A stretch of 64,000 bases of DNA, taken from assembly GCA_001662655.1 (NCBI GenBank), contig KV460276.1; one strand, written 5' to 3'. The stretch comes from Pseudogymnoascus verrucosus. Taxonomy: Eukaryota. Shown in pieces: positions 3,556-62,780 of the stretch. The notes beneath the pieces were generated by a model that saw only the letters and a program-made list of their open reading frames with translations, searched no databases and was not told the DNA's origin. How positions within the stretch are numbered: the stretch's first letter is position 1; every line of letters begins with the position of its first letter. Made by a program: the position numbers and the translations under genes.

Positions 3556-5288
3556 CTATAAAGAATTTTGAAGCTGTGATGTAATAGCTAAAAACTGCTG
3601 CGTAGTCAGCGTGCAAGAGAGGCCTGCTCCTTTATCGCCTTCTGAACCATGTCTGTGGATGAGAACCCCATTGCTCATTATGAGCCGGCGGTGCTGCTTT
3701 AGGTCCTTGAAATTTACGTCAATGGTAAAGGACTCCGCTTGAGCGCGGGGCCCATCAATTCGTATGGCAATAGATACCTATAACTGATTTAGCGAGAGGG
3801 CGGCTGTCATTCCCTCGTTACTTGTATCAAACGAGACCGGATAGAGCTTGCCACGAAGCTCGTCTGCACTGGTGAGGTAACAATTCCGCCAAGGCCCGTT
3901 CTCAGCACCGTAACCTAGTTTCTCAAATACTAATGCCAGCGCCTGTTTAGCTTCGTCGTGCTTTGAATCTGCGAAGACCACGTGGCTAAGCAAGGTCGCT
4001 GCAAAGCGGAGGTCGCCATTCTCGACATAAGTTTGGGCCATACAGACGACCGCGTCGGCGCCTCCCATACAGAACACATAGCGTCGGCCTTCCTCTGCCG
4101 GGGGGTGCTCCCAAAGATGAGCTGGATTGCCATCGTACCATCCCATATATCGTTGGTAGATTGCTTTCACATTGTGGCTGATGGATCCGTAATAACCCTG
4201 TGCGTGCCAGGCCCTCTGGAGCGTATGTGGGAGAACGAAAGACTCGGCTATCTCGATCCCTGTCTGGCCCTGGTTTATCATACGAACCGTTTGGTCGTGT
4301 AAGTATGCGTAGAGGTCTCACTGCTCTGAGAGATATTGGGTAATTGCTTCGCGACCCCAAGTAGGCCAGTGGTGCGAGGCGAAGGAGACGTCTGCATCAT
4401 GGGCAAAAAGAACAATAGCCTCATCTAAGTAGCTCGACCAGGCCTGGGCATCACGGACCACTGCCCCTCGTAGAGTTAAGATGTTATGGAGGTTATGAGT
4501 AGCATTTTCAGCCATACATAGAGCCTTGCGTTCGGGAATATAGAAGTTCATCTCGGAAGGCGCTTCCGTTCCTGGTGTGATCTGAAATATGAAACGCACG
4601 CCATCAACAACCTCTTCCTGACCAGTCTTAGTAATTTCTAGAGTTGGCGGAATCAGTGTAGTTGTGCCGGTGGATATGGTGCTGCCAAGCCCTGTGGAGA
4701 TCTGGCCCTCTGGTCCTTTCTTGAGCTCATTCCCATACATATACACTGCACGGCGAGCCATCGCGTTGCCGACAAAGATATTCTCCCCTACAGCATGTTC
4801 CACAAAGCCTTTAGGGGCTAGTATCGTGACTTTTTTGCTTGTTTCCTGTAGCACACCACGGGACCACCAAAATGGTCGCCATGCGGGTGCGTGTAGAGCA
4901 ATCCAGTGACGGGTCGGTTTCCACGGTGTTCGCGGTAGAGTTTGAGACCAGCTGCCGCACACTCCACAGAGATTAGAGGGTCAATGACAATTATACCTTG
5001 TTTTCCTTCGATAACCGTCATGTTGGACAGATCAAATCCACGGATTTGGTAGATACCGTCTGTGACTTGGTAGAGGCCCTGCTGACGACAAAGTTGGGCT
5101 TGGCGCCAGAGGCTCGGGTTGGCTGATGGCGGGCACGAACCTTTGAGAAAGTCGTATTCCTCATTGTTCCAGATAACGTGGTCCTCGTGATTTCTGACTA
5201 TGCAGGGTTCAAGAGCAGCGATAAAGCCTCGACTCGCATTATCGAAATCAGTAGTGTCAGTAAACGAAGAAGAGGTAACTTTAGACAT
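3556..5288 (-). pseudogene. Alkyl/aryl sulfatase (SdsA1/BDS1 family, metallo-beta-lactamase fold) pseudogene
   Basis: Motifs NPSLWRQAQL, YQIRGFDLSNMT, HPHGDHFGG, TPGTEAPSEMNFY, HNILTLRGAVVRD, HHWPTWG, GYYGSISHNVKAIYQRYMGWYDGNPAHL. Broken by a 1-nt frameshift near 4862 (HFGG/ARGVL), TGA at 4318-4320 in EQ*DLYAYLHDQT, and TAG at 3778-3780. The 3' end is approximate. Confidence 0.9.
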
Positions 5289-7106: not shown

Positions 7107-8336
7107 TCAGGTGCCCACCGCCTGCTTAGACATATTTAAGCTATCTTTGAAGCTTTTTGCCTAAGCATACGCCTTTACATACTCAGCATTATAGATTTCG
7201 GACACCGTCTGTGGCGAATATTTCACTACCGACCCTTTCTCCTCACATCCTGGCAAGCAATCAATAACAAAATCGGGATTGCCGTTTATGCAAAGAGGAA
7301 TTGAATACCGCTCTTTTCCCGATTTGTTAATGACGCGGTGTAGGTTTGAGTTATATTGATCGTTTGACCTATGCCACCATTAGTTCAGGCGTAAAGACTA
7401 CCTTTTAACCCCTCAAGTCGTCGACATAGAGAGCGGCTGCAGACAGACCTACCATCGCATTAACATATTGCCAATGTTGACCACATAAGCACCCTTCACC
7501 AGCACAACATCTAACTAAGCCTCGGTCACATTGTCCCACACCTGTAGCCCATCAACCTCTCCCTGCAACAGCAGCGTAATCGCGCCCCAGTCTGTATGGG
7601 CGCCAATCCCTCTCGCCAGCCTATCCTCGGAATCCTTCTCCTGTGGGGGGTAATGGAGGTACTTTAAAAGCGGCACTGCACCTGTCTTAAAAGCGTTGAA
7701 ATAATCCTCACTCAGCCCTAAAGTTAAAGCGAGGGCCTTGAGAAGATCACTAGCAAGTTCGCGAATGGCAGACAAGTACTCCGTGGATGTGACTTTGAAG
7801 TCTGAGGCGCCAGCCATGGTGCTAGCTTTGGGCCAGACGTTAGGTCCAGATTGCATCTTTTTGTTGACGAAGTACGGGTGTGTCGTAGGAATGTCGTCGC
7901 CGAGGAAGAAGCCTTCGTTCATTTCGGGCTTAGTGCCGGGTTCGAGCATCTGCACACCATAGGGCGAATAGCCGCGGCCCCAGGAGGTAAGGGCTATATA
8001 TCATATTAGTGTGTGAAAGGCATTAGGGTGCGAAGATGGGCGTCGTATTTCATTTTCTCTTCTATGGGGAGGTCAAAAAACTCCTTTGACACGTTGAATG
8101 TCCGCTCTTGGAGCTCCGCGCCGACTTTGTGCCCTACAATCTGGAAGAAACCGTCGTGCAGGCAGCACGACCGGATGTCGTCGACTAGTTGCTGCTTCTT
8201 GGTAGCACCGTCGCTATAGAAAGCTGTGAGTCATAAGCATTTATCGTCATTCAAGAATCTCCATAGATGGACGTCGGAGGAGTACACAGAACCACTTACC
8301 AGAAAAGTCAAGGATAGGTGGACCTGAGCCAACCAT
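7107..8336 (-). pseudogene. 2-oxoglutarate/Fe(II) dioxygenase (IPNS-like, DIOX_N plus 2OG-FeII_Oxy) pseudogene
   Basis: MVGSGPPILDFS, GFFQIVGH, RGYSPYG, LHYPP, GIGAHTDWGAITLLLQ, VVNIGNML, SNLHRVIN, RYSIP. TAG at 7515-7517 where W is expected (EA*LDV), a second TAG near 7161, and no GT donor visible for the intron near 8040-7995. Confidence 0.85.
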
Positions 8337-12657: not shown

Positions 12658-14211
12658 ATGAAGTTTCTCATCTTTGCCACTCTTCTTCCATTGGTGCTGG
12701 CTTGTACCAATCCAAACTCAGATGCTTGTGCCTCTGCAGTCAGTGTGTTAGGGCAGGCCTTCTGTGCTACATATACCACAAAAGTCAACACAGCCACGAC
12801 ATCGCTGCCAGCATGGGCAAGCGCCTGCTCGAATAAGCCCACCAAGATCTCCAGTGTGTGTACTTGCTTCGCGACGGCAACTGCACCGGCAACCGCAACT
12901 GTACGTATGATCACCTTGTAATGAGCTCTACTTTGCTAATGCTCAGCATAGCCAACGACATTAAAAACTAGTACGACGGCAACAAAGGTCACAACGACGA
13001 CATCAGCCCCTGGTGGTGGTGGTGGAACTGCTTGCACTGTGACCGCTTATGCTTCAATCTCCGCTGCCGTTGCATCATGCTCAAACATTGTTTTATCCGG
13101 AATTTCTGCTCCCGCCTCTAGCTCAATTGATTTATCAAAGTTGAAGACTGGTGCGGCAGTTACCTTCTCTGGCACAACTGTACGTATGATTAATCGTGAC
13201 ATATAAACTGGATTGCTAACTGTGGAAGACCTTTGGGAAAACGTCAAGCAATGACTTCAACCCCATCGTTATTTCTGGTACCGATATTACCATCACGGGA
13301 TCAGCTGGCCATGTTATTGATGGAAACGGCCTGGCGTACTGGGATGGTCAGGGTTCAAATGGAGGTGTCGCAAAGTACGTCTGAAATATTTTCCATATAA
13401 TAGGAATACTAATTCGTGTGTTAGGCCAGACCATTTTATTGTCGCAAAAAACTTGAAGAACGCAGTATTTTCTAACTTAAACATTAAAAACTGGCCAGTC
13501 CACTGCTTTGATATCACCGGTGGAGACACTATTACGCTAAGCAACATTCATCTTGATAACACGGCGGGAAATGCTGCAAATTCTGCAAGTGGCGGCCTTC
13601 CTGCCGCTCACAACTCGGATGGATTCGATATTTCGGGAACATCTAATCTCATCTTGGAGAATTCGTATGTTAATAACCAAGATGACTGTGTAGCTGTCAC
13701 CAGTGGAACCAACATCCTTGTGTCGGGAATGACCTGCATTGGTGGTCACGGACTGAGTATTGGGTCCATCGGAGGGAAGAGCAACAATGTAGTAGATGGA
13801 GTGACGTTCCAAGATTCGACCATTTCTAATAGTCAGAATGGATGTCGAATCAAGTCTAACTCTGGCACGACTGGAGCTGTAAGTTTAATTTCGCGCTACG
13901 GCAGAAACCCGTTAACATTTTCGCAGGTCAACAACGTCACATATAGCAACATTATACTGTCGGGGATTACCTCATATGGTATTGATGTGCAGCAGGATTA
14001 TTTGAACGGTGGGCCGACGGGTGACCCAACAAACGGTGTCACTATTTCCAACATAAAATTCATCAACGTGAAAGGCACCGTGAGTTCGAGTGCGTATAAT
14101 TATTATATCCTCTGTGGCTCTGGAAGTTGCTCTGGCTTTACTTTTACTAGTGACAGCATTACTGGTGGTAAGACGAGTTGCAACTATCCTTCATCTGGAT
14201 GCCCTAGTTAG
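12658..14211 (+). CDS. Secreted endopolygalacturonase, family GH28, with Cys-rich N-terminal module and Thr/Gly linker, 5 exons
   Basis: Signal peptide; YWDGQGSNGG; catalytic motifs HNSDGFD, NQDDC, GGHGLSIGS, RIK; canonical introns (first 12901-12951). Confidence 0.95.
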
Positions 14212-18667: not shown

Positions 18668-20059
18668 ATGGCCTCCGACGATGTATACCCCCTCTTTATG
18701 CTTGACGACAACAAAATCCTCCATGGTATCGTCGTTACATGGACCCTCCGCTTCAACGACCTTCTCGACGCCGACCGCCTCCACACCTCCCTCTGCCGCC
18801 TCCTCTCGATCGGCGACTGGAGAAAGGTCGGCGGACGCCTAGTCCGAAAGGTATCCCCTACCTCCCTCGAAATTCACGTCCCCCCTCAGTTCACCCCCGC
18901 ACGCCCCGCCCTCACCTACTCCCACACGGCCAACCCCTCTGACATCGACGACCACCCCCTCGCTAAGACCCTCCCAAAGGCCACGCCCACCCCCTCCATC
19001 CAGCGCGGCTCCAACGAATTCCGCGACTTTGAATGCCGTAAAGACGCTCCTGCCACCCTCGAGGACTACCTCATCAACGACACGCCCATCCTCTCCCTCC
19101 ACATCACCTCCTTTAATGACGCCACCATAATCGGCCTAACATGGCCGCACGTCCTCATGGACGTCATGGGCCAGCAGGCTCTCCTGCGCGGCTGGTCGCT
19201 CGTCCTAGCAGGAAAGGAGTCGGAAGTCCCAGCCCTCCTCGGCGCACGTGAGGACGCCCTCTTATTCCCCGACAACCAAGAAGTCTACCATCCCCAACGC
19301 CTTCAAGGATTCGGCATGTTCAAGTTCGGACTGCGATTTGTCGCCGACCTCCTCTGGAATCGCGTCGTCGAGACACGCACAATCTTCCTGCCAAAGGCGG
19401 CCGTGGCCAAACTACAACTCCAAGCCCAAGAAGACCTCTCCGGCGAGTTCGTCAGCGAAGGCGACGTTCTAACAGCATGGGCGACGCGTGCTGTGGCCTC
19501 ATCCATGCCACCTCGTCCCATAACCGCCCTACACCCCCTTAACCTGCGATTCCGTCTTCCATCCCTCATCGAGGCTCCCGGCGTCTTCGTGCAGAACATG
19601 GCCGTCTCAGCCTTCTCGCTCTTCACGCCTGAACTCCTCCGAGGACCCCTCGGACCCATTGCGCTCGAGAATCGGCGCCAGCTGATGGAGCAGGCGACAG
19701 AGCCTCAATTGCTCGCCTTGTTACGCGAGATGAGACAGAGCTACACGCCTGGCAGCGACACAACCGTTCTCTGCGGCGAGTCGCATGCCCTGCTGATGCC
19801 GTTTACGAACTGGACCCGAGCAAACGTCTATCAGGCGGCTGATTTTAGCTCAGCAGTCGTACGCGCTGGTGAGGGAGACTCGAGGAACAACCCGCCCGGC
19901 ACCATTGTGTACCAGCACGCCAATTCAATGCGATCGAGCCCGACGATGCGAAATGTCGTTGTCATACATGGCAAGGACCACGGTGACAACTACTGGCTGA
20001 CCGCGCTTCTGCTCCCGGCCGCTTGGGCGAAGATTGAGGAGGAGATTAAGAAGTTGTAG
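18668..20059 (+). CDS. CoA-dependent acyltransferase-like protein (CAT-like/BAHD-type fold), intronless
   Basis: 463-aa ORF with WRKVGGRL, PILSLHITSFNDATIIGLTWPHVLMD (HxxxD) and VSEGDVLTAW; substrate unknown. Confidence 0.75.
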   Translation: MASDDVYPLFMLDDNKILHGIVVTWTLRFNDLLDADRLHTSLCRLLSIGDWRKVGGRLVRKVSPTSLEIHVPPQFTPARPALTYSHTANPSDIDDHPLAKTLPKATPTPSIQRGSNEFRDFECRKDAPATLEDYLINDTPILSLHITSFNDATIIGLTWPHVLMDVMGQQALLRGWSLVLAGKESEVPALLGAREDALLFPDNQEVYHPQRLQGFGMFKFGLRFVADLLWNRVVETRTIFLPKAAVAKLQLQAQEDLSGEFVSEGDVLTAWATRAVASSMPPRPITALHPLNLRFRLPSLIEAPGVFVQNMAVSAFSLFTPELLRGPLGPIALENRRQLMEQATEPQLLALLREMRQSYTPGSDTTVLCGESHALLMPFTNWTRANVYQAADFSSAVVRAGEGDSRNNPPGTIVYQHANSMRSSPTMRNVVVIHGKDHGDNYWLTALLLPAAWAKIEEEIKKL

Positions 20060-20460: not shown

Positions 20461-21567
20461 TTAAACCTTCAACCACGGCAACTCCTCCTTCGAATACCTA
20501 TACGCCCTAAACAGCGCATTCGACTCGCCAGGAAAGATCCCCCTCGTGATATCATCCTTGTACTCTGCAAAATGCGGCACAATATACTCCCAAACCAACA
20601 CCCCCTTCACCGTCACCTCGAAGATCCTGCCAAACGCGCTCTCGCAGATGAGCGTATTCCCATTCGCCAACCTCTGCGCGCTCCCCATAAACGGAGTGAA
20701 AAAGGTATTCCACTGCGACGGGTCCCTATACTGCCACACAATTTCTTTCGTCCTGCGGTCCACCTCAATAACCCTGCTATATGTGTTCGACTCGCCCGTG
20801 CGGTATGCGCCGTTGTCGAAGATCAGGATATTTCCGTTCTCGAGCTCCGTCGCACAATGCTGCTGTGCAATAACGTCCGACTTCAAACTCCAGATGATGT
20901 TTCCAGTCGCCCGCTCAATGATGAGCACAGCAGAAATCGATCGCATAGAACACAGAATATTTCCATCCTTCAACGGAAGAACACTGTTAATTAGAGGATA
21001 GTGCTCCCTCCCGTAATGTGACTGCAGAGGAAACTCCTCCCTTGGCAACCGCTCGCTGACTTTCCACTCAAAGGTCACCTTTCCTTTAGGGTCAATCTCC
21101 TTGATGATGTCCGCATACGTCACGCCGTCAATCTCCGAACCTGGAATCCCGCCAACAACCTTGGCCGAGTCTTCCTTCGAAAGCGCCTCCAAACTCGTAT
21201 ACAGGAAACCTCCATCCCCATAATGGAACTGGTCGTGATGGCCCAGAGGATCCTTGACCTGCCTGACAACATTCCCGGCTGGATCCAACTCGCTCATAAC
21301 ACCCCCGCCATATTTATGGATGAAGGGGAAGATGTCGGGCGTCTCCGGGTTGATAGTGTTGATGGCGAGATTTCCGTTGGGGAGAATCCGCGCGTGTCGT
21401 CCAGTTCGGCCAGGCAATTGCCAGCGATGAACTTCCTTTCCGTCGATATCAACGAGGTATGCAATATCCCCGGCTAGAGGCGCAAAAAGAGTGTATCCTC
21501 CAAAAGTCTGCTCCTTGTCAACGCCCCTTAGGCCGACCCCGCCTCTTTTGATGGTGTTTTGCTCCAT
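20461..21567 (-). CDS. Arylsulfate sulfotransferase (ASST)-like beta-propeller protein, intronless, no signal peptide
   Basis: First ATG at 21567 (368 aa). GYTLFAP, AYLVDIDGKEVHRW, ILPNGN, GHHD, LINSV..DGNILCSMRS, QQHCATELENGNILIFDNG, SRVIEVD..IVWQY, GSAQRLANGNTLICES..GRIFEVT..VWEY, FRAYRYS. Confidence 0.85.
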   Translation of the reverse strand: MEQNTIKRGGVGLRGVDKEQTFGGYTLFAPLAGDIAYLVDIDGKEVHRWQLPGRTGRHARILPNGNLAINTINPETPDIFPFIHKYGGGVMSELDPAGNVVRQVKDPLGHHDQFHYGDGGFLYTSLEALSKEDSAKVVGGIPGSEIDGVTYADIIKEIDPKGKVTFEWKVSERLPREEFPLQSHYGREHYPLINSVLPLKDGNILCSMRSISAVLIIERATGNIIWSLKSDVIAQQHCATELENGNILIFDNGAYRTGESNTYSRVIEVDRRTKEIVWQYRDPSQWNTFFTPFMGSAQRLANGNTLICESAFGRIFEVTVKGVLVWEYIVPHFAEYKDDITRGIFPGESNALFRAYRYSKEELPWLKV

Positions 21568-21803
21568 TTTGTCCGAATTGTCAGTCAATTGAAAACGGGA
21601 AACACCCCTTCTTATCTCTTCCAGCCTCTAAACATAACCCCGCTATCATTTTGGCGCCGTTACCGGCGATCAGGAACCCCCACGATGAATCTCTAACAAT
21701 TGACCTAGATTTCGGTGACCGGCGACGACCGGGTAGTCCCCACCACGTGCAATCGCGTGCCGCCAACTTCATTCCCCGCGTAAGCCAATAAGCTTCTCTC
21801 CGC

Positions 21804-21844
21804 ATGTTGCCATTTCTAGGGTAAATCAACTTAAATGGCGTCTT
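21804..21844. promoter_or_regulatory. Two near-consensus CYS-3/MetR sulfur-regulator sites in the ASST/MFS divergent promoter
   Basis: ATGTTGCCAT (21804-21813) and ATGGCGTCTT (21835-21844) each match ATGRYRYCAT at 9 of 10 positions. Confidence 0.35.
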
Positions 21845-22295
21845 CACGCCTTCGTGAGTATTTTTTAACTTTTGCCATATAAATCGTTCAAATTCGTCGT
21901 GTTTGAATGTTTTCTTTTACGGTGGTATACGGCTCTCTGCTCCTTTTTAAATGCGACGGATTGAATAATGCTGGCTGTCGACCCCATGCATTCAAACTCT
22001 TATGAAGAGTGCATACGTCAGCTCAGAATCTCCTCTCATTGGGCTAATAGATAAGGTATACCGAAGATGATCAAGCCACAAACGTGGTTGGGACGTTGAC
22101 TTATTGGTCGGATATGGCGTATCTTCCCATCACCCTGCTCTACTTATCTCCGTAATGGCCAGTGCTGATAGCGACGGGGTTGTAACGATGTCGGAATCCA
22201 GCGCGCCATGGGATATGAGATGAGATGCCTCTTAGATACAAATATAGGGCCCTGCCGAGAGAATGTCATTCATTTCAGAACCCCCATAGTCTAAA

Positions 22296-23953
22296 ATGGC
22301 CTCCCCTGCATTGCCCGTGGCAGAAATAACGACCCAACTAGCATCTTCTCACCTCGAAAAGAAAGAAGATGCCACTCCCCTCCAGCTGCTGGAAATCCCC
22401 GGCTATGACCAAGACCTAAGCTGGTCCATCCACGAGGAGCGTGTTGCGGTCCGCAAGGTCGACCTCTGTATCCTCACCTTCATCGTCCTGCTCTTCACAT
22501 TCATGCAATTCGATCGAACCAACATCTCCGCCGCTCTCACAGACACCCTTCGCACCGACATCAATGTAAACACGTCTCAGATCAACACTGCCCAGACTCT
22601 CTTCATCTTGGGCTTCATTCTCACCGAAATCCCATTCAACATCATTACGAAGAAGATAGGGGCCGAGACATGGCTACCCATCACCATGTTCCTCTGGGGT
22701 GTGTGCACATGGTGCCAGATCTTCATGAAGAGCGCTAGTGGCCTATTTGCCTTGAGGTTCTTCATAGGTGCTATGGAGGGCGGATATATTCCTGGTACAT
22801 ACCTACGTCCACTCTCACATTCGTCCCTAACTTTATAGGAATGGCACTTTACATCTCCCGCTACTACACCAACCCTGAACTTGGCCTCCGCTTCGCCCTG
22901 TTCTGGGCCAGCAACGCAGTCGCAGGTTCCCTGTCCGGGCCCCTTTCTCTCGGCCTTCTCTCCCTCAGCGGCACCCACGGACTGAAGGGCTGGCAATGGC
23001 TGTTCCTTATCGAGGGCGCCGTCACCTGCTTCCTGGCTGTCGTGGCATACCTCTACCTGCCTCATTCAGCTCCCAAACCAAAGTCGTTCTTCGGAAAGAG
23101 CTGGAACATCTTCACCGAGCGAGAAGCGGCCATCTTGACCACCCGAGTTCTGAGAGACGACGCAACTAAGGGGTACACCCAAGGCAAGTCGGTCCAGATT
23201 CAAGACTTGAAAGATACGTTCATGGATTGGAAAATCTATGGACACGTTGTGTCTGCGTTCCTGTCAATGTAAGCATTCCACCCCGACGACAAGTCCAAGT
23301 CTAACTCTCACAGGCTTATGATCTATCCCATCAACACCTACGCACCGTCGCTCATAAAATCCCTCGGATTCGGTGGCTACAACGCCAATGGCCTCAACTC
23401 AGTCGGCTCTGTCGTCTCTCTCATAATCTCCATCTCAATTGCATGGAATAGTGACCGTACCCAAGAGCGTGGTTTCCACATTGCCTTTGGATTCTGTGTC
23501 GGCATTGCGGGTCTGTTGTGGACTGCCCTGGCGCCAGTTTCCTCTTCGAAATGGGTTGTTTATGGTGAGTCTAGTCTTCCCAACTCGCAGTAATAAACTA
23601 ACCAGATAGGTGGAATCGTCCTCACCCAAGCTGGCATGGGTTCGACGCAAGCGCTCAACGCAGCGTGGCTTTCGAGTGTAGTAGACGACAGAAAACGACC
23701 TATTGCATTGGCAATGTACGTTATGGGCATCCAGCTCGCTGGCTTCCCTGGAAATCAGCTATTCCGACAGCAAGATGCTCCGAGATACAGCAGAGGCTTG
23801 ATCATTGCTGCAGCCTGTGCAGCCGCCGGAGCGGTGATCGTGTTGGTATGGAAGGGGATTTATGCATTTGTGGAGAGACGACAAAATAGGAGCCCTGTGA
23901 ATGTCACAGAAAGCCCTCGCAGTGAAGAGAGCGCGTGGGGCGAGAAGAAGTGA
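22296..23953 (+). CDS. MFS transporter, anion:cation symporter/DAL5 family (SOA1/AstA-like candidate), 4 exons
   Basis: VRKVDLCIL, QFDRTNISAAL, EIPFNII, RFFIGAMEGGYIPG, YYT..ELGLRFALFW, GLKGWQWLFLIEG, DAPRYSRG; first intron 22795-22838. Confidence 0.88.
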
Positions 23954-24226
23954 AGACTGCTTGTATAATATGATATCTCTAGAATGCCTCTTTAGCGACA
24001 AGAACCAAACATAGGATTAGATAGAACGATGCAAATCCCTTACCACGACGCCGCCTGTTTTGGTGAAATGACCTTGTTTCTTCTAAATATTGCGTTACGC
24101 TCCGTTCAACATCCCTCTCAAACTTCATTGTTTACAAAACGTGCAAATAGATGGCAAATTATATGTCATTTTTAAATATAGACAATAATAACTTTGGCAG
24201 CTCTACTGTGCACCATTATCACCCCC

Positions 24227-25464
24227 CTAACAGCTGCTAGAGATAGATCCCTTGCAGTAGGTTCCGTCAAATCCTGACCCAATCTTTGGGGGCTCAGCTC
24301 CACTGGCGTTGCCCGTATATCTATCGCAGCCCTTGCCACTGTTTTGGCAAGAGTTCGTGATTGTGCAAGTGTCGCCATAGTTGGTGTTGATGCCGCAGAT
24401 GACTCCGCCGTTGATGGCCATGATATTGTCGAAAATAAAATTGCGAGGGCCACCATTGCCGCTGCAGTTGCCGCAGCTTCGAGCAACCTTTCCATAGTCG
24501 TTGGCGTAGAAGTTCTTCACGGAGACCGTTCCGCGGCCGTTGAATTGGATGATTTTGTCAGAGGCCTTGAATGCACCTCCTCCGTTGATGTAGGATGTGC
24601 CGCTAGCCTGCTTGAATGTGCTATTCACAGTTATAAGGGGTGTTAGGCATAAAAGTCGGCATCACTTACATGGCATCCTCACAGACGTCAGACCACCAGA
24701 CGTTATTGATTGTGCTAAAAAATGTCAGCTTCCAAATATTAGAGGCAAGTCGGATCTTTGACATACCACTTTCCCTTGCAGTGGACACCCTCAGCTTGGT
24801 TTGGACCAATTATAACGTTGGAGAGCGTGGCACCATCCTCAAGGATGAACATGGCATCCGCCTCACCAGTCTCCGTCTGTCCAGCACAAACCGCGGCTGT
24901 ATGTTGTTAGAGCCGTGAATACACGCCAAGGGGCGAGGACCACACTTACGGCTTCGGTCGTACATCTTCATGCCACCATCGAAGCTACCGGTGACGGCAA
25001 TAGCCTTGTTAGTGGCAACTATCACAGGTCAGCTATGCCATAAACGAATGCAGAATGCTACACACCAGCGCCCGAGGACTTGGGCAAGGTCGTGGTAAGG
25101 CCAGTCGGTGTGGCGCCGCCGCTGCCGCCACCAGCTGCCGTAGTCGTTGGCACGAGTGTGGTTGCTGGTGCACCTCCTGCTCCAGTCCTAAACTTTGTCA
25201 GCGACTCCCCGCAAAACGATACGTTCGCCCTCACCAGTAGCATGAGCACTCCTTGCTGATCTGGCTAGGCTTGCTGTCGCAGTTGGTGGCCCATGCAGGC
25301 AGGCCAGTGGTGGCAGTGACGACTTTCGTTGTGAACGTGCCGCAGTATGGCGAAGCAACAGCCTGGTTCGACTTGATATAGCTGGCGCATGAGTTGGTGT
25401 CTGGGTTGGAGCATCCCAGAACAACGGGGATCAGGCCCAGGATGGCGTAGCGGAAGTTCGTCAT
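24227..25464 (-). CDS. Secreted pectate lyase, family PL3, with Cys-rich N-terminal module and Thr/Gly linker, 6 exons
   Basis: Signal peptide [94 protein letters not shown]; five GT-AG introns restore the frame. Confidence 0.93.
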
Positions 25465-25635
25465 GGCTAGATCTTTCTGTGCAAAGAATTGATAGACAGT
25501 GTAATGCAATTGGAGCGTCTAATCCTTGTATGAACCTTGCTGAGAGGATGAGGTGATCGCCCGCAGCTCTTATAGTTCGGCGTTTTCAAGCATCGCTATA
25601 GAGAACATTACAAGGAAAAGAATGCCCCGTTCATT

Positions 25636-25956
25636 CCCACCAATTGATGGAGGTTGTCCATGATAGAGTTTGTGCTAAAGACCTGACAGATTAACGTCGA
25701 TCAATGGAAGAGTCGGGATTCACTACTCAAGGCACGAACTGTAGAGCCAAGACGCGATTCTTGAAGCCAAGTTGGCCGACTATATAGCCAAGAGAACATT
25801 AATTACTCTGAGGTTGGCATATAAAGGCCACCAATCGAATAGACCCTTCGTTTACTTCCATGCGCGACTCCGAGCAGCTCCGGCAGCTCGTGCAGTGGCT
25901 CATGCACCCCAGATGTAACGGCAATATCAAAGTTAATATCTGGAAGGGGGCTTGGC
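25636..25956. promoter_or_regulatory. PL3 promoter with PacC-type and GaaR-type sites
   Basis: GCCAAG at 25746, 25766 and 25787 and CTTGGC at 25951 (PacC GCCARG); CCACCAAT at 25637 and 25828 (GARE CCNCCAA). Confidence 0.5.
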
Positions 25957-26535
25957 TCTTTGGCATGGTCTGCCCGTCTATCCGCTATCCGCTGAGAATT
26001 CTCCGAAATGGCGGGGGAGTCACTTGACTTCAACGACGGTGTATGACGATATTTTAATTATTCCGTTCACAGGCAAGATATCGTCGGTCATTGAAGCCGT
26101 TGAAGTCGATGAAGTCGGGCATCGAGGCGCATTCAATCGTCGTATACAAATCAGTTCTCCACAGCCCTCAGTCTATTTCCATCCAGCTTCTCGTGTCCGA
26201 GCGGTGATGAGACCCACGCCCAAATTATATTGGCCTCGATAGCTGTAAAAACATATCCACTCACGTTTCACTAGATGTTCTAGGCCCACGGAAAGAAATG
26301 CAAAGTCAATGCCAATAAAATCAAATCATAAAATATAAAATCGCTTCAGGTTCGCTTCTACCATCTCATTTGATCTTACAAAATACACATCATCATGACG
26401 CCCCGCCGGTGGACCGTGGCCGTCTCAAAACCATGTCGGCACAGAAATACAGTCCAAAGCCCCGTCTATTCGCAACCTCATACCAAAACTGCCAACCCCA
26501 TCATACATGCCTAGGCATGGCCAAAGTGAACGCGC

Positions 26536-28522
26536 TTAATCAATCTTAATCGATCCGTAAATCTTCTGTACGAACATCCAGCTTGCAAAGAAGCCAATGG
26601 TGCCTGTCGAGTTAGCTTTAGTCACAAGAAGGAGAAAGTCAGGACATACCGGTGAGAATAAAAAACAAAAAGCTGATCAAAGCACTGTATCCCAAGTAAA
26701 GAACCCCACCTGTCAACCCTCCCAGCTGCAACTTCGTCACCCAATACGCAACCGCGTGCAAGAACACGTAAAATGCGCTCGTGCCGGCAGCAAGGAACGC
26801 GCGCCAGTGCCAGTGGTAGTTCTCTGAGCACAACAGGAAATACACCAAAAGGATCGTGACCGCAGCGCACGTGACAATCATAAGCCCATAACAGAGGAAA
26901 AGGAAACCAAACATGTAGTAGACCTTGCTGAACCAGATGGACGACATGATGAAGAAGAGCTCCACAAAGATAGCGGCAAACGGCAACAGACCAACAAGAA
27001 GCATGCTGGGAATAGGGCGCAGCCATGTGGTTCCTGGAGGGATCTGGCGGGGAATCTGGTTCGTCCGCACAGGAGCAGCAACGGCCTGCTGTCTAAATCC
27101 AACCCAGGATCCGGCGAAAGACAATGGTACAGAAATCACAAACCAAATCGCCACGACGACGACCATGGTTGTGAATGGAACAGCACCGCTCGACCCATTA
27201 ACCCAGAGGAAAAAGTTGAGGAGGAAGAAGGTGCAGAAGACGAGTCCAGGAACGAGGAGGGGCGTCAGTCCGATGTTGAGTTTCCATGCCTCCCCACCAA
27301 AAGACTTGTAGACTCGAGCAGAGGCGTAGCCGCCAATGAATCCGAACAGGGTGTAGAGAATGATCATGACGGAGCCGAGCGAGCCGCGGTTGGAAGGAGA
27401 CAAAAATCCCAAAAGCGCAAAGGCAATCGTGGCGCCGGTCATCACAAATAGCTGCGCCCCATTTCCGAGGAAGACTGACAGCATTAGGGAGTACTTTGGA
27501 GCGCGGAAAACATCGCCATGCACTAGCTTCCACCCAGAGTCCTCCTGCACACCGTCCTCAAGAGCGGCCGAGGTTCCCGAGAAGTCCTCGAGATCAATAG
27601 AGTCAAGGCGGTTGTAACGTGCAATATCCTTCTTCAGGGCACGGTACAGGATGGACACAACCGTCAGGGACAGGAAGACGAGGATGATGGCGGAGTTGAT
27701 GAGAGAGAACCAGTGGATCTTCGGATCAAAAACGTGCAGATACTTGTCCCATCGTGTGCCCCATGCTGTTGGCGACGGACGCCAGTACACACCATATGTC
27801 CAGGTCACAGTCGTCTCGTGGTCCGTTGCCAATTGCATTGGCGTTGACGCATCACCACAGTCAGGGGTCCCGTCGTGCACACCTGAATTGGCTCTTGACG
27901 ACGGCTGGACGAGCACACCGACAACTCGGAACTGGCCCGTCGTAGACTCATGGTAGTCTATGAGGATATCGTAATGGTTGTTTAGTGCCGGTGGGCTAAT
28001 TTCTGAGTTCCCAAGCTTAAAGCCCTGGCTATAGAATTGGGTCTTCGTTTTGTCGACCTCCAACAACTGCCCCGCTGGCAATCCATCCACCAGCCAGTTG
28101 AGATCGAAATCTCTAAATATCTTATCATTCGTAAAAGCTGCCGACCCCACGTCGAATTTTACAGGATTGCAGGCTGCCTTGCACGTTTCATTCACTCCCA
28201 TCTTCAGCTCAAAAGGGGACGTCTTGATTCTGTCGCCAAATATGATGCTGCCCAAACTTTCCGGTCGGTCTTCGGGTTCTGGGTCTGGCCGGCAGAATTG
28301 GAACATTGGGTGGTAATAGTCATACGGCACAATAGACCGTAGTGCGCCATCCTTCTGTGAAGCTGAAGCTGTCAAAGCATTGACATATAGCGGGACACTG
28401 TCGCCTTCGGCGTATGATGTTGGTGCGACTCCAGGAAGATAAAATGCTGAGGAGAGCTGAGGCGCAGCAGCAAGAAGTGTCGCCAGCAGCGCATGCGAGG
28501 GTGAGAGGTCTCGCAACAGCAT
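26536..28522 (-). CDS. EMP70: Nonaspanin/TM9SF endomembrane protein 70, 2 exons
   Basis: FYLPGVAPTSY, ESLGSIIFGDRI, IHWFSLINS, GWKLVHGDVFR, PVRTNQIPRQIP; last exon ends KIYGSIKID. Confidence 0.92.
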
Positions 28523-44319: not shown

Positions 44320-45902
44320 TCAAATTCCCATCCCCTCATCCCTGCCCTTAACACCATTCGTCAACCCCAACTTCTCCCTCACCCTATCCTCCACCTCCAC
44401 AACGCCAACTGGTCCCTCTCGCCCAATTCCAAAGAACACAAACAAGGCCCACTTCCAGCGGAACGGGTTAATAGCAACACAGAACACAAACCACCACACC
44501 AGCTCAAGATACGTGAAGAAGTCAAACGCTCCCGTCGGGCTGAAATGCTTCAGCAGCCTCGTCATATCGATCCAGCACTTTGTCCACCACGGGCGCGGTC
44601 GCGTCATCGGATCCAGGAGGAACATCAACAGGATGCGGGTGTAGATTCCGATGTGCCAGTTGCCCACGGAGCCGATGGCGTTGATGTACGTGCAGTTCGT
44701 GGCGCAGACGCTCGGGTGCTGGGGCGGGAAGGTCTGGAGGTACCAGTTGGGGGGTCCGTAGGGGGCCTCGAAGGTTTCGCTCGGAAGGAAGGAGAGAGAG
44801 GGGCGGTCGAAGCCGGTTGCGAGGATGACGATGTCGGCGTCGACGTTGACAGTCTTTCCTGGGCCACGCTTTGGAACGCCCTTAGCGCGCTGGTTGAATT
44901 TCAGGCCGTTCTCGGTGAAGGAGAGGATGTCGCCGCGGAGCCACTCGGCGTCGCCGGAGCGGATCAGGTCAAAGATGTCGGAGTTGACCATGGGTGTTCC
45001 TTCGAAGATGCCCTTGTCGGTTGGGGCCAGGTCTGAGAGGTCACGGTAGAAGAATTTGCGGAGCAGGAATTCGGGGATGAAGCTGAGGAAGGTCTCCTGG
45101 CCGAAGATGTTGAAGGAGAGGAGGACATTGACGATTGGGTTACGGGGAATGATCCATTTGTCGCTGCGAGCGAGAATTGTGGTGTGCTCTGCGTGGGAGT
45201 TTGTGGCGAACTCGAGAGCTTCAACAGCAGAGGCGCCTCCGCCAATGATAACAACTTTCTTGCCCTTGGCTTCCTTGCCGGTCAATTGGCTGCTGTGGTA
45301 GACTTCGCCCTTGAAGGCTTGCTGGTTGTTGATGCGCGGGGTGCTGGGGTCTCCACAAGTGCCCACAGCGGCGATGATACCATCAAATTTGCCGTTAGAT
45401 TCGCTGTTGACGATCCAGCGTCCCTCTGAGTCCTGGGTCACCTTGTCGACTGAAGTGTTGAAGGTGGTACGTGAGTCAAGGCCATAGCGTTTCCAGAGCT
45501 CAGTTACTTGCTCGACAATTTGTTCTTTGTTTGGGTATCCGCGAGCCCATTGAACAGACGGGTGGAAGCGGTACATCATCGAATGGATCTGGAGGCCAGA
45601 GGTATTGTTCACTCTCTAAAATCCTGTCAGCTCAATGTCTCAATTTGTCAAAAAGTATCACTCACACTCCAAATTCCTCCAAGTCCGTCTCGTCCCTCCT
45701 TCTCAAAAAGCTGGACGTCGAACCCATGACCGATACAGTGAGCCGCGCTGGACACTCCGGTGATACCTGCGCCAATAATGGCGATACGTGGGCGGCTCAG
45801 TTTAGAATTCGGCGGCGGGGGAGTTGGGGACAGAAGCTTATCAGCTATCCATTGAAATAACTGGTATAGAAATAGAAACGGGTGAAGCAGAAGGTTATCC
45901 AT
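44320..45902 (-). CDS. Flavin-containing monooxygenase-like protein, 2 exons
   Basis: IAIIGAGITG (FAD), GGIW, FKGEVYHSSQL, IIGGGASAVE (NADPH), ATGF. Confidence 0.9.
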
Positions 45903-51100: not shown

Positions 51101-51906
51101 TCGTCTCAATGATATTCTGCTCTATACTATGACTTCCCTCCAGTGCTCTCGTTAATGGGTGTCATTAACCACGGACAACGAGCCGCTGTACCGCATTCTC
51201 CATCTTATTCTGGCAACAGTATACCAAAGAGTGGATACTCCACCTGTGGAAGACTACTGTTTATACTTCCATGCAGATACTAAAGATCTTGGTTCTCCAA
51301 TACCGGTTAGCATAGCCCTGACGCGCACCAAAGCGGCGCCAATATGGTAACTCTCCTTGACCAACGCGGGGTCGTCAGCGAATCCGAGCTATTAATCCGA
51401 AGCGCCCTGTTCTCAATCTATATGTTTCGTACATCTTGACCTGTTTTTGGATGAAGCCTCTGACGTCGCGTCTGCATCCTTGCCATGCACCTCTTTCTTC
51501 CATACTTCGGCAGAAGCTTTTGTGGGTTTCTAGTCTGCGAAACACAACCTTCCATCCGCTTTGATAGGCCACTGTTTAGCTAAGAGCAGGGGTGACGGCC
51601 GTATACAACAATTAACTTCGCGGAGATTGAGGGGCGAGAATGGTTGAGATGTCTCATGATGAACTTTAGATTGCCAACCAAGCTGGGGATATGTCCATCA
51701 TCTTTCAGGCATTATGCATCAGGTAAAATAGTGACGATCTATCAACCGACCCTGCGGCGTTCACGGCCCTGATGTCCACGTCCGAGCCTTTGCCCAAGGT
51801 CAACTCGCTACGAGCTGATGCTCAGAGAGATATAAAGAGAAGAAGATTTCCCACAATATTCTAATCATCACCTCACTCAACAACACATCCACAACCATCT
51901 TTCAAA

Positions 51907-53325
51907 ATGATCAGCAAGCTTGCCCTCGCCACCTTCACTCTTCTGGCCGCCGTCAGCGGCCAGCAAGTTGGTACTCTCGAAGCTGAGACTCACCCTTCCA
52001 TGTCTATGCAGACTTGCACCAGCGGAGGAGCTTGCACCAAGAAGGACACCAAGATCGTTCTTGATTCCAACTGGAGATGGCTGCACTCTACTGACGGCTA
52101 CACCAACTGCTACACCGGCAACGAGTGGGACGCAACTCTGTGCCCAGACCCAGAGACTTGCGCCACCAACTGCGCTCTCGACGGTGCTGACTACGAGGGT
52201 GTTTACGGTATCAAGGCTGGCGGCGATTCGCTGACCCTCACATTCGTCACTGGTGCCAACGTTGGATCGCGTGTCTACCTTTTGGCAGATGACAGCACCT
52301 ACCAGGGCTTCAACCTGAAGAACAACGAGTTCACCTTCGATGTTGACATGTCCAACCTCCCCTGCGGACTCAACGGTGCCCTCTACTTCTCCCAGATGGA
52401 CCTTGACGGTGGATTGGCCAACCACGCTGGCAACAAGGCCGGTGCCGCGTACGGAACCGGATACTGTGATGCTCAGTGCCCCCACGACATGAAGTTCATC
52501 AATGGCGAGGTAAGAGAAGCGGTCTACAGACCCTTTAATTTTCCGACTAACACATCATAGGCCAACACCATTGACTGGACCCCATCTGACAGCGACATCA
52601 ACGCTGGCAGCGGAAAGTTCGGAACCTGCTGCACAGAGATGGACATCTGGGAGGCTAACCAGGCCGCCTCCGCCTACACCCCCCACGCATGCAAGGGCCA
52701 AGGCCTCACCCGCTGCGAGGGAACCGACTGTGGTGATGGAGATGACCGCTACTCCGGCGTCTGCGACAAGGACGGATGTGACTTCAACAGCTACCGCATG
52801 GGCGACCCATCCTTCCTCGGTGTCGGCAGGACCGTCGACACCTCCAAGGTCATCACCGTGATCACCCAGTTCGTGACCGCCGACGGCACCGAGTCCGGCG
52901 CTCTCACCTCCATCAAGCGCATCTACGTCCAGGGCGGCAAGACCATCGCCAACTCCGAGAGCAAGATCGATGGCGTTGACGCCACCAACGAGATCACCGA
53001 TGCCTTCTGCGACCAGCAGAAGACTGCCTTCTCCGACAACAACTACTTCAAGACCCTCGGCGGCATGTCTGGCTTCAGCACCGCCCTCGACTCCCCCATG
53101 GTCCTCTCCATGTCCATCTGGGACGACCACGCAGCCTCCATGAACTGGCTCGACTCCACCTACCCCGTCGGCGGCACCGCCCCTGGCAACCTCCGTGGTG
53201 ACTGCGCCGCTACTGATGGCGACCCAGCTACCGTAGAGGCCGCCCACCCAGGCGCCACCGTCACCTTCTCCAACATCAAGTTCGGTCCCATTGGCTCGAC
53301 CTTCGATGCTGGCGCAACCGCATAA
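51907..53325 (+). CDS. cbh1: Secreted GH7 cellobiohydrolase I-like enzyme without CBM1, 2 exons
   Basis: [42 protein letters not shown], catalytic [24 protein letters not shown]; intron 52510-52560. Confidence 0.93.
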
Positions 53326-61791: not shown

Positions 61792-62780
61792 TTAGACAAA
61801 GGTACTTTGAACCAAAGAAACCGTCTTCTCAGCCAACAACTTTGCATCGCCAGGGAACCTCGCACTAATATAATTATACTTCTCATCCTCGATAACAAAT
61901 CTATGAGACGTAAGTTTAATCTCAGATGCTTTGTATAGGGGCAAGATCAATGACTTACGCTCCTATTCCAATACTGTTCTTGTACTGCTTGTCCGGATTA
62001 TCCAAAACTTTCCGGACCTAACCTCCAGTTAGCACCTAGACTAATATTCGAACACATCAAACTCACTGCTTCCTCAACATTCTCACTCGCAGCCCCATAC
62101 GTCTTATAATAATCACCTAAAAATGCTCTCGTACCCCAATATGCCACCTGTTCAAACAGTGCAGGCAGGGCCGTTGTGTCGCATTCATGTATGACACTCT
62201 TCCCCTCCATATCCTTTGTCTTCGAAAGCACCATGACGCCATGGCACACAGCAGCCACACTCCTCTTGCTCGGCTTCATCGTGCTAGAGAAATATGCAGC
62301 GATGTGTCTCTGCATTATATGCGAGTCAATTAATTGTCGCACTCCTTTTTCGTGGCCACCAGGGAGGAAGATCAGGTTGTAGGTGTCGAGGGAGAAATCG
62401 GAGGAGGACCAGGAGAGGGGGTTCTGAAATTCAGGTTGCGTGGACATGGAGTTATAGGCCTCAACTGCTAAACCTGTTGCTCCCTTGGGTTAGGTCAATT
62501 AGCTTGTATAATAGCTAGATAGGCATGAAGGGGTATTTAGTACTAGGAGTTTCTGGGTGATACCCTTCAACATCTTTTTGTCGCATTCCGGAGTCTTGCC
62601 CTTCTCCGTTGCGAAATGGACTTCGAATCCGGCTTTCTTGAATTCGGTATAGGGAACAGCGGTCTCTAGAGAATTCACATCATTACTAGCACGTTATGTT
62701 CCTGCAAAGATGTAGGAATGGGTACCTGTTGGATCATGTCCATAATCGGACATTGGTATGAGAACTTTGGCGGTCGTCAT
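61792..62780 (-). CDS. DJ-1/PfpI (class I glutamine amidotransferase-like) protein, multi-exon
   Basis: KVLIPMSDYGHDPT/ETAVPY, LIFLPGGH, AAVCHG nucleophile elbow, YISARFPGDA. Confidence 0.88.

Follow-up and report, generated by a model that had tools for sequence, protein, structure and literature searches.

Arylsulfate sulfotransferases (ASSTs) are bacterial enzymes that act independently of 3′-phosphoadenosine 5′-phosphosulfate (PAPS). Canonical members are periplasmic and linked to DsbL/DsbI, and sulfate-ester loci of the ats/sft type are found in Pseudomonas. An ASST-like gene is also present in the fungus Pseudogymnoascus verrucosus, in a 64,000-nt stretch of contig KV460276.1 (assembly GCA_001662655.1) that is here called the window. 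It stands head to head with a gene for a major facilitator superfamily (MFS) carrier, and both genes diverge from a common gap of 728 bp, close to the 730 bp or so given in an earlier note on this DNA. We regard the pair as an import-and-process module of bacterial origin, with a probability of roughly 0.85.

The available part of a 2026 review treats ASSTs as periplasmic bacterial enzymes and as biocatalysts, with natural roles that are mostly unknown (PMC13426309). Elsewhere, arylsulfotransferases are merely listed among the sulfur genes of Raffaelea (PMC7441637) and bacterial ASSTs are merely cited (PMC12142624). In the accessible portion of a 2018 review, three fungal enzyme families are assigned to sulfate esters, with 0 occurrences of the word 'sulfotransferase' (PMC5857272). 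Bds1, described in parts of two papers as a bacterially derived sulfate-ester enzyme used by a fungus, is a precedent for the present case (PMC5303821; PMC5857272). No published description of the subfamily or the fungal cluster reported here was found in the main texts searched, and literature that combines arylsulfotransferase with sulfur starvation, MetR, CYS-3, ssuD or tauD held nothing on this subfamily.

The ASST-like protein of the window passes the cut-offs of both Pfam families, PF14269 (75.9 bits; cut-off 27) and PF05935 (69.9 bits; cut-off 24.2), and matches 0 families in NCBIfam. Its top protein match, from Pseudogymnoascus sp. 03VT05, is 97% identical. Residues 1–367 align end to end with bacterial homologs, and the gene therefore has no intron. 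Neither an N-terminal extension relative to the propeller nor a hydrophobic leader is seen in the alignment or the AlphaFold2 model of the 368-residue protein, the first propeller strands lying already at residues 25–30. The earlier note had described a single intronless reading frame without signal peptide whose N-terminus resembles bacterial homologs, and the alignment agrees with it on each of these points. The model (predicted local distance difference test, pLDDT, 95.0; predicted template modeling score, pTM, 0.93) is a beta-propeller. In a Foldseek comparison, the best solved structure is Cpz4 (9KF4/9KF6; E 8.8e-19 to 1.2e-18; query template modeling score, TMq, 0.64–0.68), and E. coli ASST is matched with an E of ~1e-11 to 2e-12 and a TMq of 0.63–0.66.

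The protein thus shares with the bacterial PAPS-independent ASSTs, represented by E. coli 3ELQ and Desulfitobacterium Dh_ASST_6, the propeller fold, both Pfam families and a set of active-site residues. Unlike these enzymes, it has no signal peptide and no additional N- or C-terminal domains, and its subfamily is tied to importers; its identity to E. coli ASST is 14%, over a length of 368 residues versus ~570. The active-site equivalents were read from a profile alignment to the PDB chains 3elq and 4p04, the latter carrying the H436N substitution, against the residue list given in the available part of PMC13426309. H237 corresponds to the sulfuryl carrier His436 of E. coli, a column in which 4p04 shows the expected N. 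All 21 close sequences, which come from fungi and actinobacteria, have this His, as do 28 of 34 distant homologs. H111, N194 and R209 correspond to His252, Asn358 and Arg374 and are likewise kept in all 21 close sequences. The HHD, SMR and QQH motifs, which the earlier note had put forward as catalytic equivalents, do align with His252, Arg374 and His436, respectively. Altogether, four of the six ASST active-site residues are retained (H237, H111, N194 and R209).

The two remaining positions are replaced. M294 occupies the column of Thr501, and L192 the column of E. coli His356, where Leu is found in 21/21 close sequences and His in 24/34 distant homologs. By the alignment, a Leu stands where the proposed acid/base His is expected, a feature that the earlier note had missed. 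The equivalent residue of the Desulfitobacterium enzyme, Dh His283, was proposed as the acid/base of a two-histidine mechanism and is conserved in an alignment of 100 sequences, according to the accessible part of that 2026 preprint (10.64898/2026.10.08.757636). Three residues before L192 lies H189, which is invariant in the close sequences (21/21); Glu is found there in 19 of the 34 distant homologs. Q235 is present in 20/21 close sequences, and the same column holds His in 21/34 distant ones. The pattern R.H[YWF]P[LIVMF][IVLM]N recurs in 119/120 and 107/120 subfamily matches from two protein searches, but in only 10 of 149 family representatives, 77 of which carry the canonical W-x-H-x-N. 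Judged by this signature (R-x-H-[YW]-P-[LM]-[IV]-N plus QQH), the enzyme is a member of a distinct, putative 'relocated-His' subfamily and is therefore not filed as a canonical ASST. Because the canonical second catalytic His is replaced by Leu192 and a new His189 is present, the second half-reaction is probably altered relative to canonical ASSTs. The Cys plus Met content (1.63% in the window enzyme, a median of ~1.36% in bacterial members) was not used as evidence, there being no proteome baseline.

Among solved structures, Cpz4 from the caprazamycin pathway of Streptomyces is the top match in sequence (E 1.5e-7; profile 7e-22) as well as in fold, and this actinobacterial protein is also of low similarity to the classical ASSTs. 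The two differ in several respects: identity is 22–23%, Cpz4 is 472 residues long and is encoded in an antibiotic gene cluster, while the present subfamily is found beside importers, and the W/Y-x-H-x-N-S motif reads VHINS in Cpz4, its His intact, but PLINS in the window enzyme.

Several relatives have unusual architectures. P0123 (889 residues) consists of an ASST-like domain, 48% identical to the window enzyme over residues 2–366, fused to a group II pyridoxal phosphate-dependent decarboxylase. The best models for the latter, a PanP-type aspartate decarboxylase and a diaminobutyrate decarboxylase, both score below cut-off; the fusion could hint at an amino-acid-like substrate. Two further proteins, P0121 (760 residues) and P0122 (815 residues), contain two ASST-like propellers in tandem.

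The carrier is encoded in four exons separated by three GT..AG introns of 44, 45 and 45 nt, and the predicted product is identical to P0270 (507 residues; Pseudogymnoascus sp. VKM F-103) at 506 of 507 positions without a gap. P0270 matches Pfam MFS_1 with 139.5 bits. Among NCBIfam models, TIGR00893 (2A0114) comes first with an E of 9.1e-48, although the 163 bits obtained stay below the cut-off of 395 for this bacterial model; its label we take to denote the ACS family (TC 2.A.1.14). Homologs carry database names such as NMN permease, vitamin H transporter and tartrate transporter, and the Atlas protein look-up gave generic MFS clusters only. At the family level only, this putative Dal5/ACS-type carrier would resemble fungal Soa1 and AstA and the neighborhood of BDS1-SOA2 in yeast, as far as the available part of the source describes it (PMC5303821). 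Contigs from three runs presumed to be RNA (X1–X3) coincide with the enzyme CDS and with parts of MFS exons, but none spans an exon junction, and they were given no weight here.

The pair is conserved well beyond Pseudogymnoascus. A metagenome scan yielded 80 loci: 13 with an enzyme 69–75% identical, 29 further low-GC loci and 38 bacterial ones. In 11 of the 13, the MFS gene is found upstream and is encoded on the opposite strand; in the other two, L086 and L088, the contigs end 706 and 208 bp upstream. Named genomes carry the two genes under adjacent locus tags, namely Claussenomyces (M1818_002729/30), Knufia peltigerae (H2204_008439/40), Purpureocillium takamizusanense (JDV02_010689/90), Conoideocrella luteorostrata (QQS21_000059/60) and Fusarium nematophilum (ACJZ2D_008900/01); those of Cladosporium sp. 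NU13 differ by two. These genomes span four ascomycete classes, namely Leotiomycetes (to which Pseudogymnoascus also belongs), Eurotiomycetes, Sordariomycetes and Dothideomycetes, a distribution that upholds the reading of the pair as a functional unit. When 11 related fungal loci were compared with the window, the window had only the enzyme and the MFS gene in common with them among the 14 largest gene groups.

A second fungal clade combines the enzyme with a different carrier. Its 29 low-GC loci encode enzymes 48–64% identical to that of the window and are taken as fungal because of their GC content, adjacent Zn_clus genes and position in the tree among named fungi. The divergent neighbor is an NCS1 permease (PF02133) in all 16 loci that have at least 1200 bp upstream, which NCBIfam assigns to NCS1 at family level only. 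No other conserved enzyme gene was found in the clusters of either fungal clade, which fits a one-step release reaction.

Bacterial relatives, named 'aryl-sulfate sulfotransferase' in Pseudomonas, Nostoc, Rhizobium and others, are found beside still other importers. A genome scan identified 351 species genomes with a relative, of which the best 80 were examined. In these actinomycete loci, an NCS2 permease gene (PF00860) is next on the same strand in 74 of the 75 with room, matching TIGR03173 at 303 bits (cut-off 414); 79 of the 80 also have an XRE-cupin regulator upstream. One or more ssu/tau-like genes neighbor the enzyme gene in 18 of the 38 bacterial metagenome loci. A gene for an SsuA-family binding protein lies 67–85 bp upstream of the enzyme gene in 11 of them, often together with a TonB receptor and an AraC/DJ-1 regulator, and the three proteins tested exceed the TIGR01728 (SsuA_fam) cut-off of 163.5 bits (199.5 and 186.8 bits in L135; 183.8 bits in L144). 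ATP-binding cassette (ABC) permeases occur in L152–L154 and L157, the permease overlapping the enzyme gene by 6 bp in L152 and L153. The order in L157 is LacI, enzyme, binding protein, ABC and TauD-like gene (E 1.2e-74), and in L125 an SsuD-like monooxygenase gene (1.2e-63) lies 6 bp upstream and SfnB/DszC-like genes (1.3e-68) downstream. In two loci, L134 and L138, the enzyme gene is followed by genes for a DAO-type flavin oxidase (FAD-dependent), an XRE-cupin regulator and a glutamine-synthetase-like protein, a set that looks like amine-utilization genes by sequence.

The relatives from proteobacteria and other groups resemble ssu/tau loci in standing directly behind an SsuA-family binding protein and beside TonB receptor, ABC and TauD- or SsuD-like genes. 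They depart from such loci in that an ASST-fold protein takes the place expected for a sulfatase or oxygenase, and in their AraC/DJ-1, LacI and XRE-cupin regulators; fungi and actinomycetes, for their part, use MFS, NCS1 and NCS2 carriers. The earlier note had assigned the pair to organosulfur scavenging. SsuA-family, ABC, TauD, SsuD-like and SfnB-like neighbors speak for this role in bacterial relatives, and only there. What is common to every lineage is an enzyme paired with an importer (MFS, NCS1, NCS2 or SsuA-type binding protein/ABC) and a substrate-type regulator.

The origin of the enzyme was addressed with two trees that agree, a quick one of 111 rows and a careful one of 72 (39 near-duplicate or long-branch rows left out). 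All fungal rows, including Umbelopsis, Basidiobolus, Cryptococcus and both ascomycete clades, fall into one clade (100/96). Fungi and actinobacteria together form a clade (100/99) that is sister to proteobacteria, cyanobacteria and others, and the fungi adjoin a group of Amycolatopsis and Saccharopolyspora (98/96). A tree with actinobacteria constrained to one clade is not rejected by the approximately unbiased (AU) test (p 0.175), so the fungi are either sister to the actinobacterial members or nested inside them. Branching within the MFS-linked clade does not follow the fungal classes, but support is low there. The horizontal, bacterial origin that had been suggested from the N-terminus is supported by the joining of fungi to actinobacteria, although the transfer is ancient and fungus-wide instead of recent in this genome.

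Regulation of the fungal loci appears to involve a Zn2Cys6 protein. A gene with this domain (PF00172) lies beyond the MFS gene in eight loci of the first clade (L082–L084, L089–L092 and L122), and it is because of this adjoining gene that the MFS models P0305 and P0316 are over-long and fused. A homolog of the same regulator is near the enzyme gene in 15 of 20 clade-2 loci with room. Twelve divergent promoters of 411–804 bp were compared, those of the 11 related fungal loci, some of which are close relatives of each other, and that of the window. CCGNCGG occurs 28 times in 11/12 promoters (1.9 expected; 0 of 300 shuffles reach 28), GGCATGCC with at most one mismatch 29 times in 11/12, and CGG-N4-CCG 24 times in 10/12. 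In the clade-2 promoters, GGCATGCC with at most one mismatch is found 46 times in 19/19, against 5.9 expected, and 0 of 200 shuffles reach 46. Promoters of the eight loci named above and of 19 clade-2 loci, and hence of two clades with different carriers, conserve the palindrome CGGCATGCCG, and CCGNCGG units spaced by ~11 bp often flank it. From these patterns, the neighboring Zn2Cys6 regulator probably binds CGGCATGCCG-type palindromes. The fungal loci are in this respect like catabolic clusters with a Zn2Cys6 activator, since relatives combine regulator, transporter and enzyme and have CGG/CCG palindromes in the divergent promoter; they differ in having a single enzyme and in a transporter that is swapped between clades (MFS versus NCS1).

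The window itself departs from this scheme in lacking both the regulator gene and the palindromes. Its promoter holds 0 CCGNCGG and 0 GGCATGCC and is the sole one of the 12 with none of the three CGG-type elements, and CGGCATGCCG with at most one mismatch occurs 0 times across the whole 64 kb. A search within the window gave no Zn2Cys6 match at E<1e-3, and positions 23900–26700 hold no remnant of such a gene (chance-level matches only). The joint absence of the regulator gene and its presumed sites is consistent, and control is probably different here. In the Aureobasidium-like locus L087, CCGNCGG is kept in the promoter and no regulator gene lies within ~4 kb beyond the MFS gene, so that in some genomes the regulator can lie elsewhere. 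Locus L085 has tandem units of ~45 bp holding GAGTGGTTGT, ~100–210 bp upstream of the enzyme gene and within the divergent promoter.

How the module would work, from the sulfated substrate and the direction in which it is carried to the sulfo-His chemistry and the binding of palindromes by the regulator, we infer as follows. The ACS-like MFS carrier would import a small organosulfate that is probably anionic and (hetero)aromatic. In the cytosol, the ASST-fold enzyme would become sulfurylated at His237 while His111, Asn194 and Arg209 bind the sulfate, and would then pass the sulfuryl group to water or a cytosolic acceptor, freeing the carbon skeleton and making the sulfur usable. An early fungus would have acquired the gene from a donor resembling an actinobacterium, and in most fungi the module would be switched on by the neighboring Zn2Cys6 regulator via CGGCATGCCG-type palindromes. 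The kept carrier His, the sulfate-binding residues and the ssu/tau-type neighbors suggest a sulfated substrate and a sulfo-His step, to which we give somewhat less than even odds. The nucleobase-type partners of the sister lineages, NCS1 and NCS2, argue for a hetero-aromatic substrate and make a role outside sulfur metabolism possible; a sulfated hetero-aromatic substrate would reconcile the two kinds of evidence. One further step, which we judge improbable, would make the subfamily a new cofactor-free class of cytosolic sulfohydrolase, an ASST fold that has become a hydrolase and that fungi acquired from actinobacteria: a (hetero)aromatic sulfate ester or sulfamate, once imported, would donate its sulfuryl group to His237, and water positioned by the relocated His189 would release sulfate. 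If true, it would be the missing enzyme for fungal growth on sulfate esters or sulfamates without the three known sulfatase types.

Several points weigh against a sulfated substrate. The residue proposed to activate the acceptor is absent, so that the known sulfuryl transfer may not occur at all. Organosulfur neighbors are confined to the bacterial relatives. Among these neighbors, the TauD (251 bits), SsuD (215) and SfnB (232) matches are all below the curated cut-offs (313, 518 and 431), and some members of the SsuA-, TauD- and luciferase-like families have substrates without sulfur. Nor are the 80 actinomycete loci independent, since one genus dominates: 75 are titled Streptomyces. None of the adjacent regulators is a global sulfur regulator; Zn2Cys6, XRE-cupin, AraC/DJ-1 and LacI proteins all belong to substrate-sensing types. 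NCS1, NCS2 and Dal5-type carriers are associated with nucleobases, ureides and vitamins and are not known to transport sulfate esters.

The pair could instead serve the salvage or catabolism of a sulfur-free N-heterocycle (nucleobase-, ureide- or vitamin-like), in which case the propeller enzyme would have abandoned sulfuryl chemistry and its His/Arg pocket would perform some other one-step conversion of the imported compound. This alternative, which we judge possible if on the unlikely side, draws on three unrelated partner carriers that are all of nucleobase or ureide type (NCS1, NCS2 and the Dal5/ACS-like MFS), on the substrate-type regulators with their Zn2Cys6-type palindrome, on an active site remodeled throughout the subfamily (L192, H189, Q235 and M294) and on promoters without a global sulfur motif. 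Against it stand the retention, in 21/21 close sequences, of the carrier His and of the Arg, Asn and His that hold the sulfate, and the SsuA-family, TauD-, SsuD- and SfnB-like neighbors in other bacteria; moreover, the clusters contain no ring-opening enzymes. A different proposal, compatible with an organosulfate substrate and made in the earlier note, places the pair in the sulfur-starvation regulon of CYS-3/MetR, induced via two ATGRYRYCAT-like sites. Both 9/10 matches exist, and since the window promoter is without Zn2Cys6-type elements, another regulator must act; the matches are nonetheless not above chance. With at most one mismatch, the motif is not enriched in the window (27 matches versus 24.96 expected; 37 of 100 shuffles reach 27), and two matches in 728 bp have a Poisson P of 0.0385, with ~3.4 such bins expected per 64 kb. 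Across the 12 promoters, there are 8 matches to this CYS-3 footprint motif, in 5/12 only, where 4.1 would be expected; 20 of 300 shuffles gave at least as many. RCGCCAT, the core of a CYS-3 motif from DNA affinity purification sequencing (DAP-seq) in the available part of PMC8550094, does better, being found three times in the window promoter and 8 times in 6/12 promoters (2.4 expected; 1 of 300 shuffles reaches 8). However, this enrichment is mild and confounded by the GC-rich CGG elements, which inflate partial matches to the DAP-seq motif. With CGG/CCG palindromes strongly conserved instead, control by CYS-3/MetR is improbable.

It is very improbable, finally, that the enzyme is a Cpz4-like tailoring sulfotransferase of a secondary-metabolite cluster, with the MFS as exporter and the product of a BAHD-like acyltransferase gene at 18668–20059 as another tailoring enzyme. 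Cpz4 is the closest solved structure and this PF02458 transferase gene is convergent with the ASST-like gene at a distance of 400 bp, but identity to Cpz4 is low, the window shares just the enzyme and the MFS gene with the 11 related loci, no core biosynthetic gene appears in the Pfam survey of the window, and the partners elsewhere are importers with binding proteins.

An import-and-process module of this kind would be of interest beyond the window. The analysis delimits, on sequence criteria, a large uncharacterized subfamily that spans fungi and several bacterial phyla, without a signal peptide, with a rebuilt catalytic center and genetically fixed to importers of four families. This gives the subfamily a concrete candidate role in physiology that can be put to the test, and the exchange of the second catalytic histidine provides a natural experiment on the function of that residue. 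For fungal biology, the module adds an ancient gene transfer from bacteria and, as candidates, either a fourth route by which organic sulfur is used or a new step in heterocycle salvage. The Zn2Cys6 regulator and the CGGCATGCCG palindrome would form a compact regulon whose inducer would name the substrate.

Table 1. Coordinates of the ASST-like/MFS locus in the 64-kb window (Ec, E. coli ASST; CDS, coding sequence; ORF, open reading frame).
Feature	Position	Strand	Basis or remark
ASST-like CDS, 368 aa, intronless	20461..21567	-	Single ORF; Pfam PF14269 and PF05935; AlphaFold2 model
Divergent promoter, 728 bp, common to both genes	21568..22295	.	Between CDS starts; without CCGNCGG and GGCATGCC
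MFS exon 1	22296..22794	+	4-exon model
MFS exon 2	22839..23268	+	4-exon model
MFS exon 3	23314..23564	+	4-exon model
MFS exon 4 including stop codon; product 507 aa	23610..23953	+	506/507 versus P0270
Codons H110-H111-D112; H111 = Ec His252	21232..21240	-	Profile alignment, codons checked
Codons R187-S195 (REHYPLINS), subfamily signature: H189, L192, N194	20983..21009	-	Alignment, codons checked
Codons S207-M208-R209; R209 = Ec Arg374	20941..20949	-	Profile alignment, codons checked
Codons Q235-Q236-H237; H237 = Ec His436, sulfuryl carrier	20857..20865	-	Profile alignment to 3elq and 4p04, codons checked
9/10 match to ATGRYRYCAT, ATGTTGCCAT	21804..21813	+	Chance level
9/10 match to ATGRYRYCAT, ATGGCGTCTT	21835..21844	+	Chance level

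Other genes of the window were surveyed with Pfam. The convergent BAHD-like acyltransferase gene (18668–20059, plus strand) encodes 463 residues (PF02458, E 3.9e-8) and was rejected as a member of the cluster, as it is not present in the 11 related fungal loci. About 16 kb from the pair, the frame 3778–4317 (minus strand) encodes an alkyl-sulfatase dimerization domain (PF14863, E 8.6e-61) and marks a Bds1/SdsA-type sulfatase gene, a second bacterial-type sulfate-ester enzyme within the window; the frame next to it (4318–4980, minus strand) has no Pfam match. The survey also identified genes for a 2-oxoglutarate-Fe(II) oxygenase (7515–8000, minus strand), a GH28 pectinase (13321–14211, plus strand), an FMO-like monooxygenase (44320–45615, minus strand), a GH7 cellulase (51865–52560, plus strand) and a ThiJ/DJ-1-like protein (61998–62489, minus strand).

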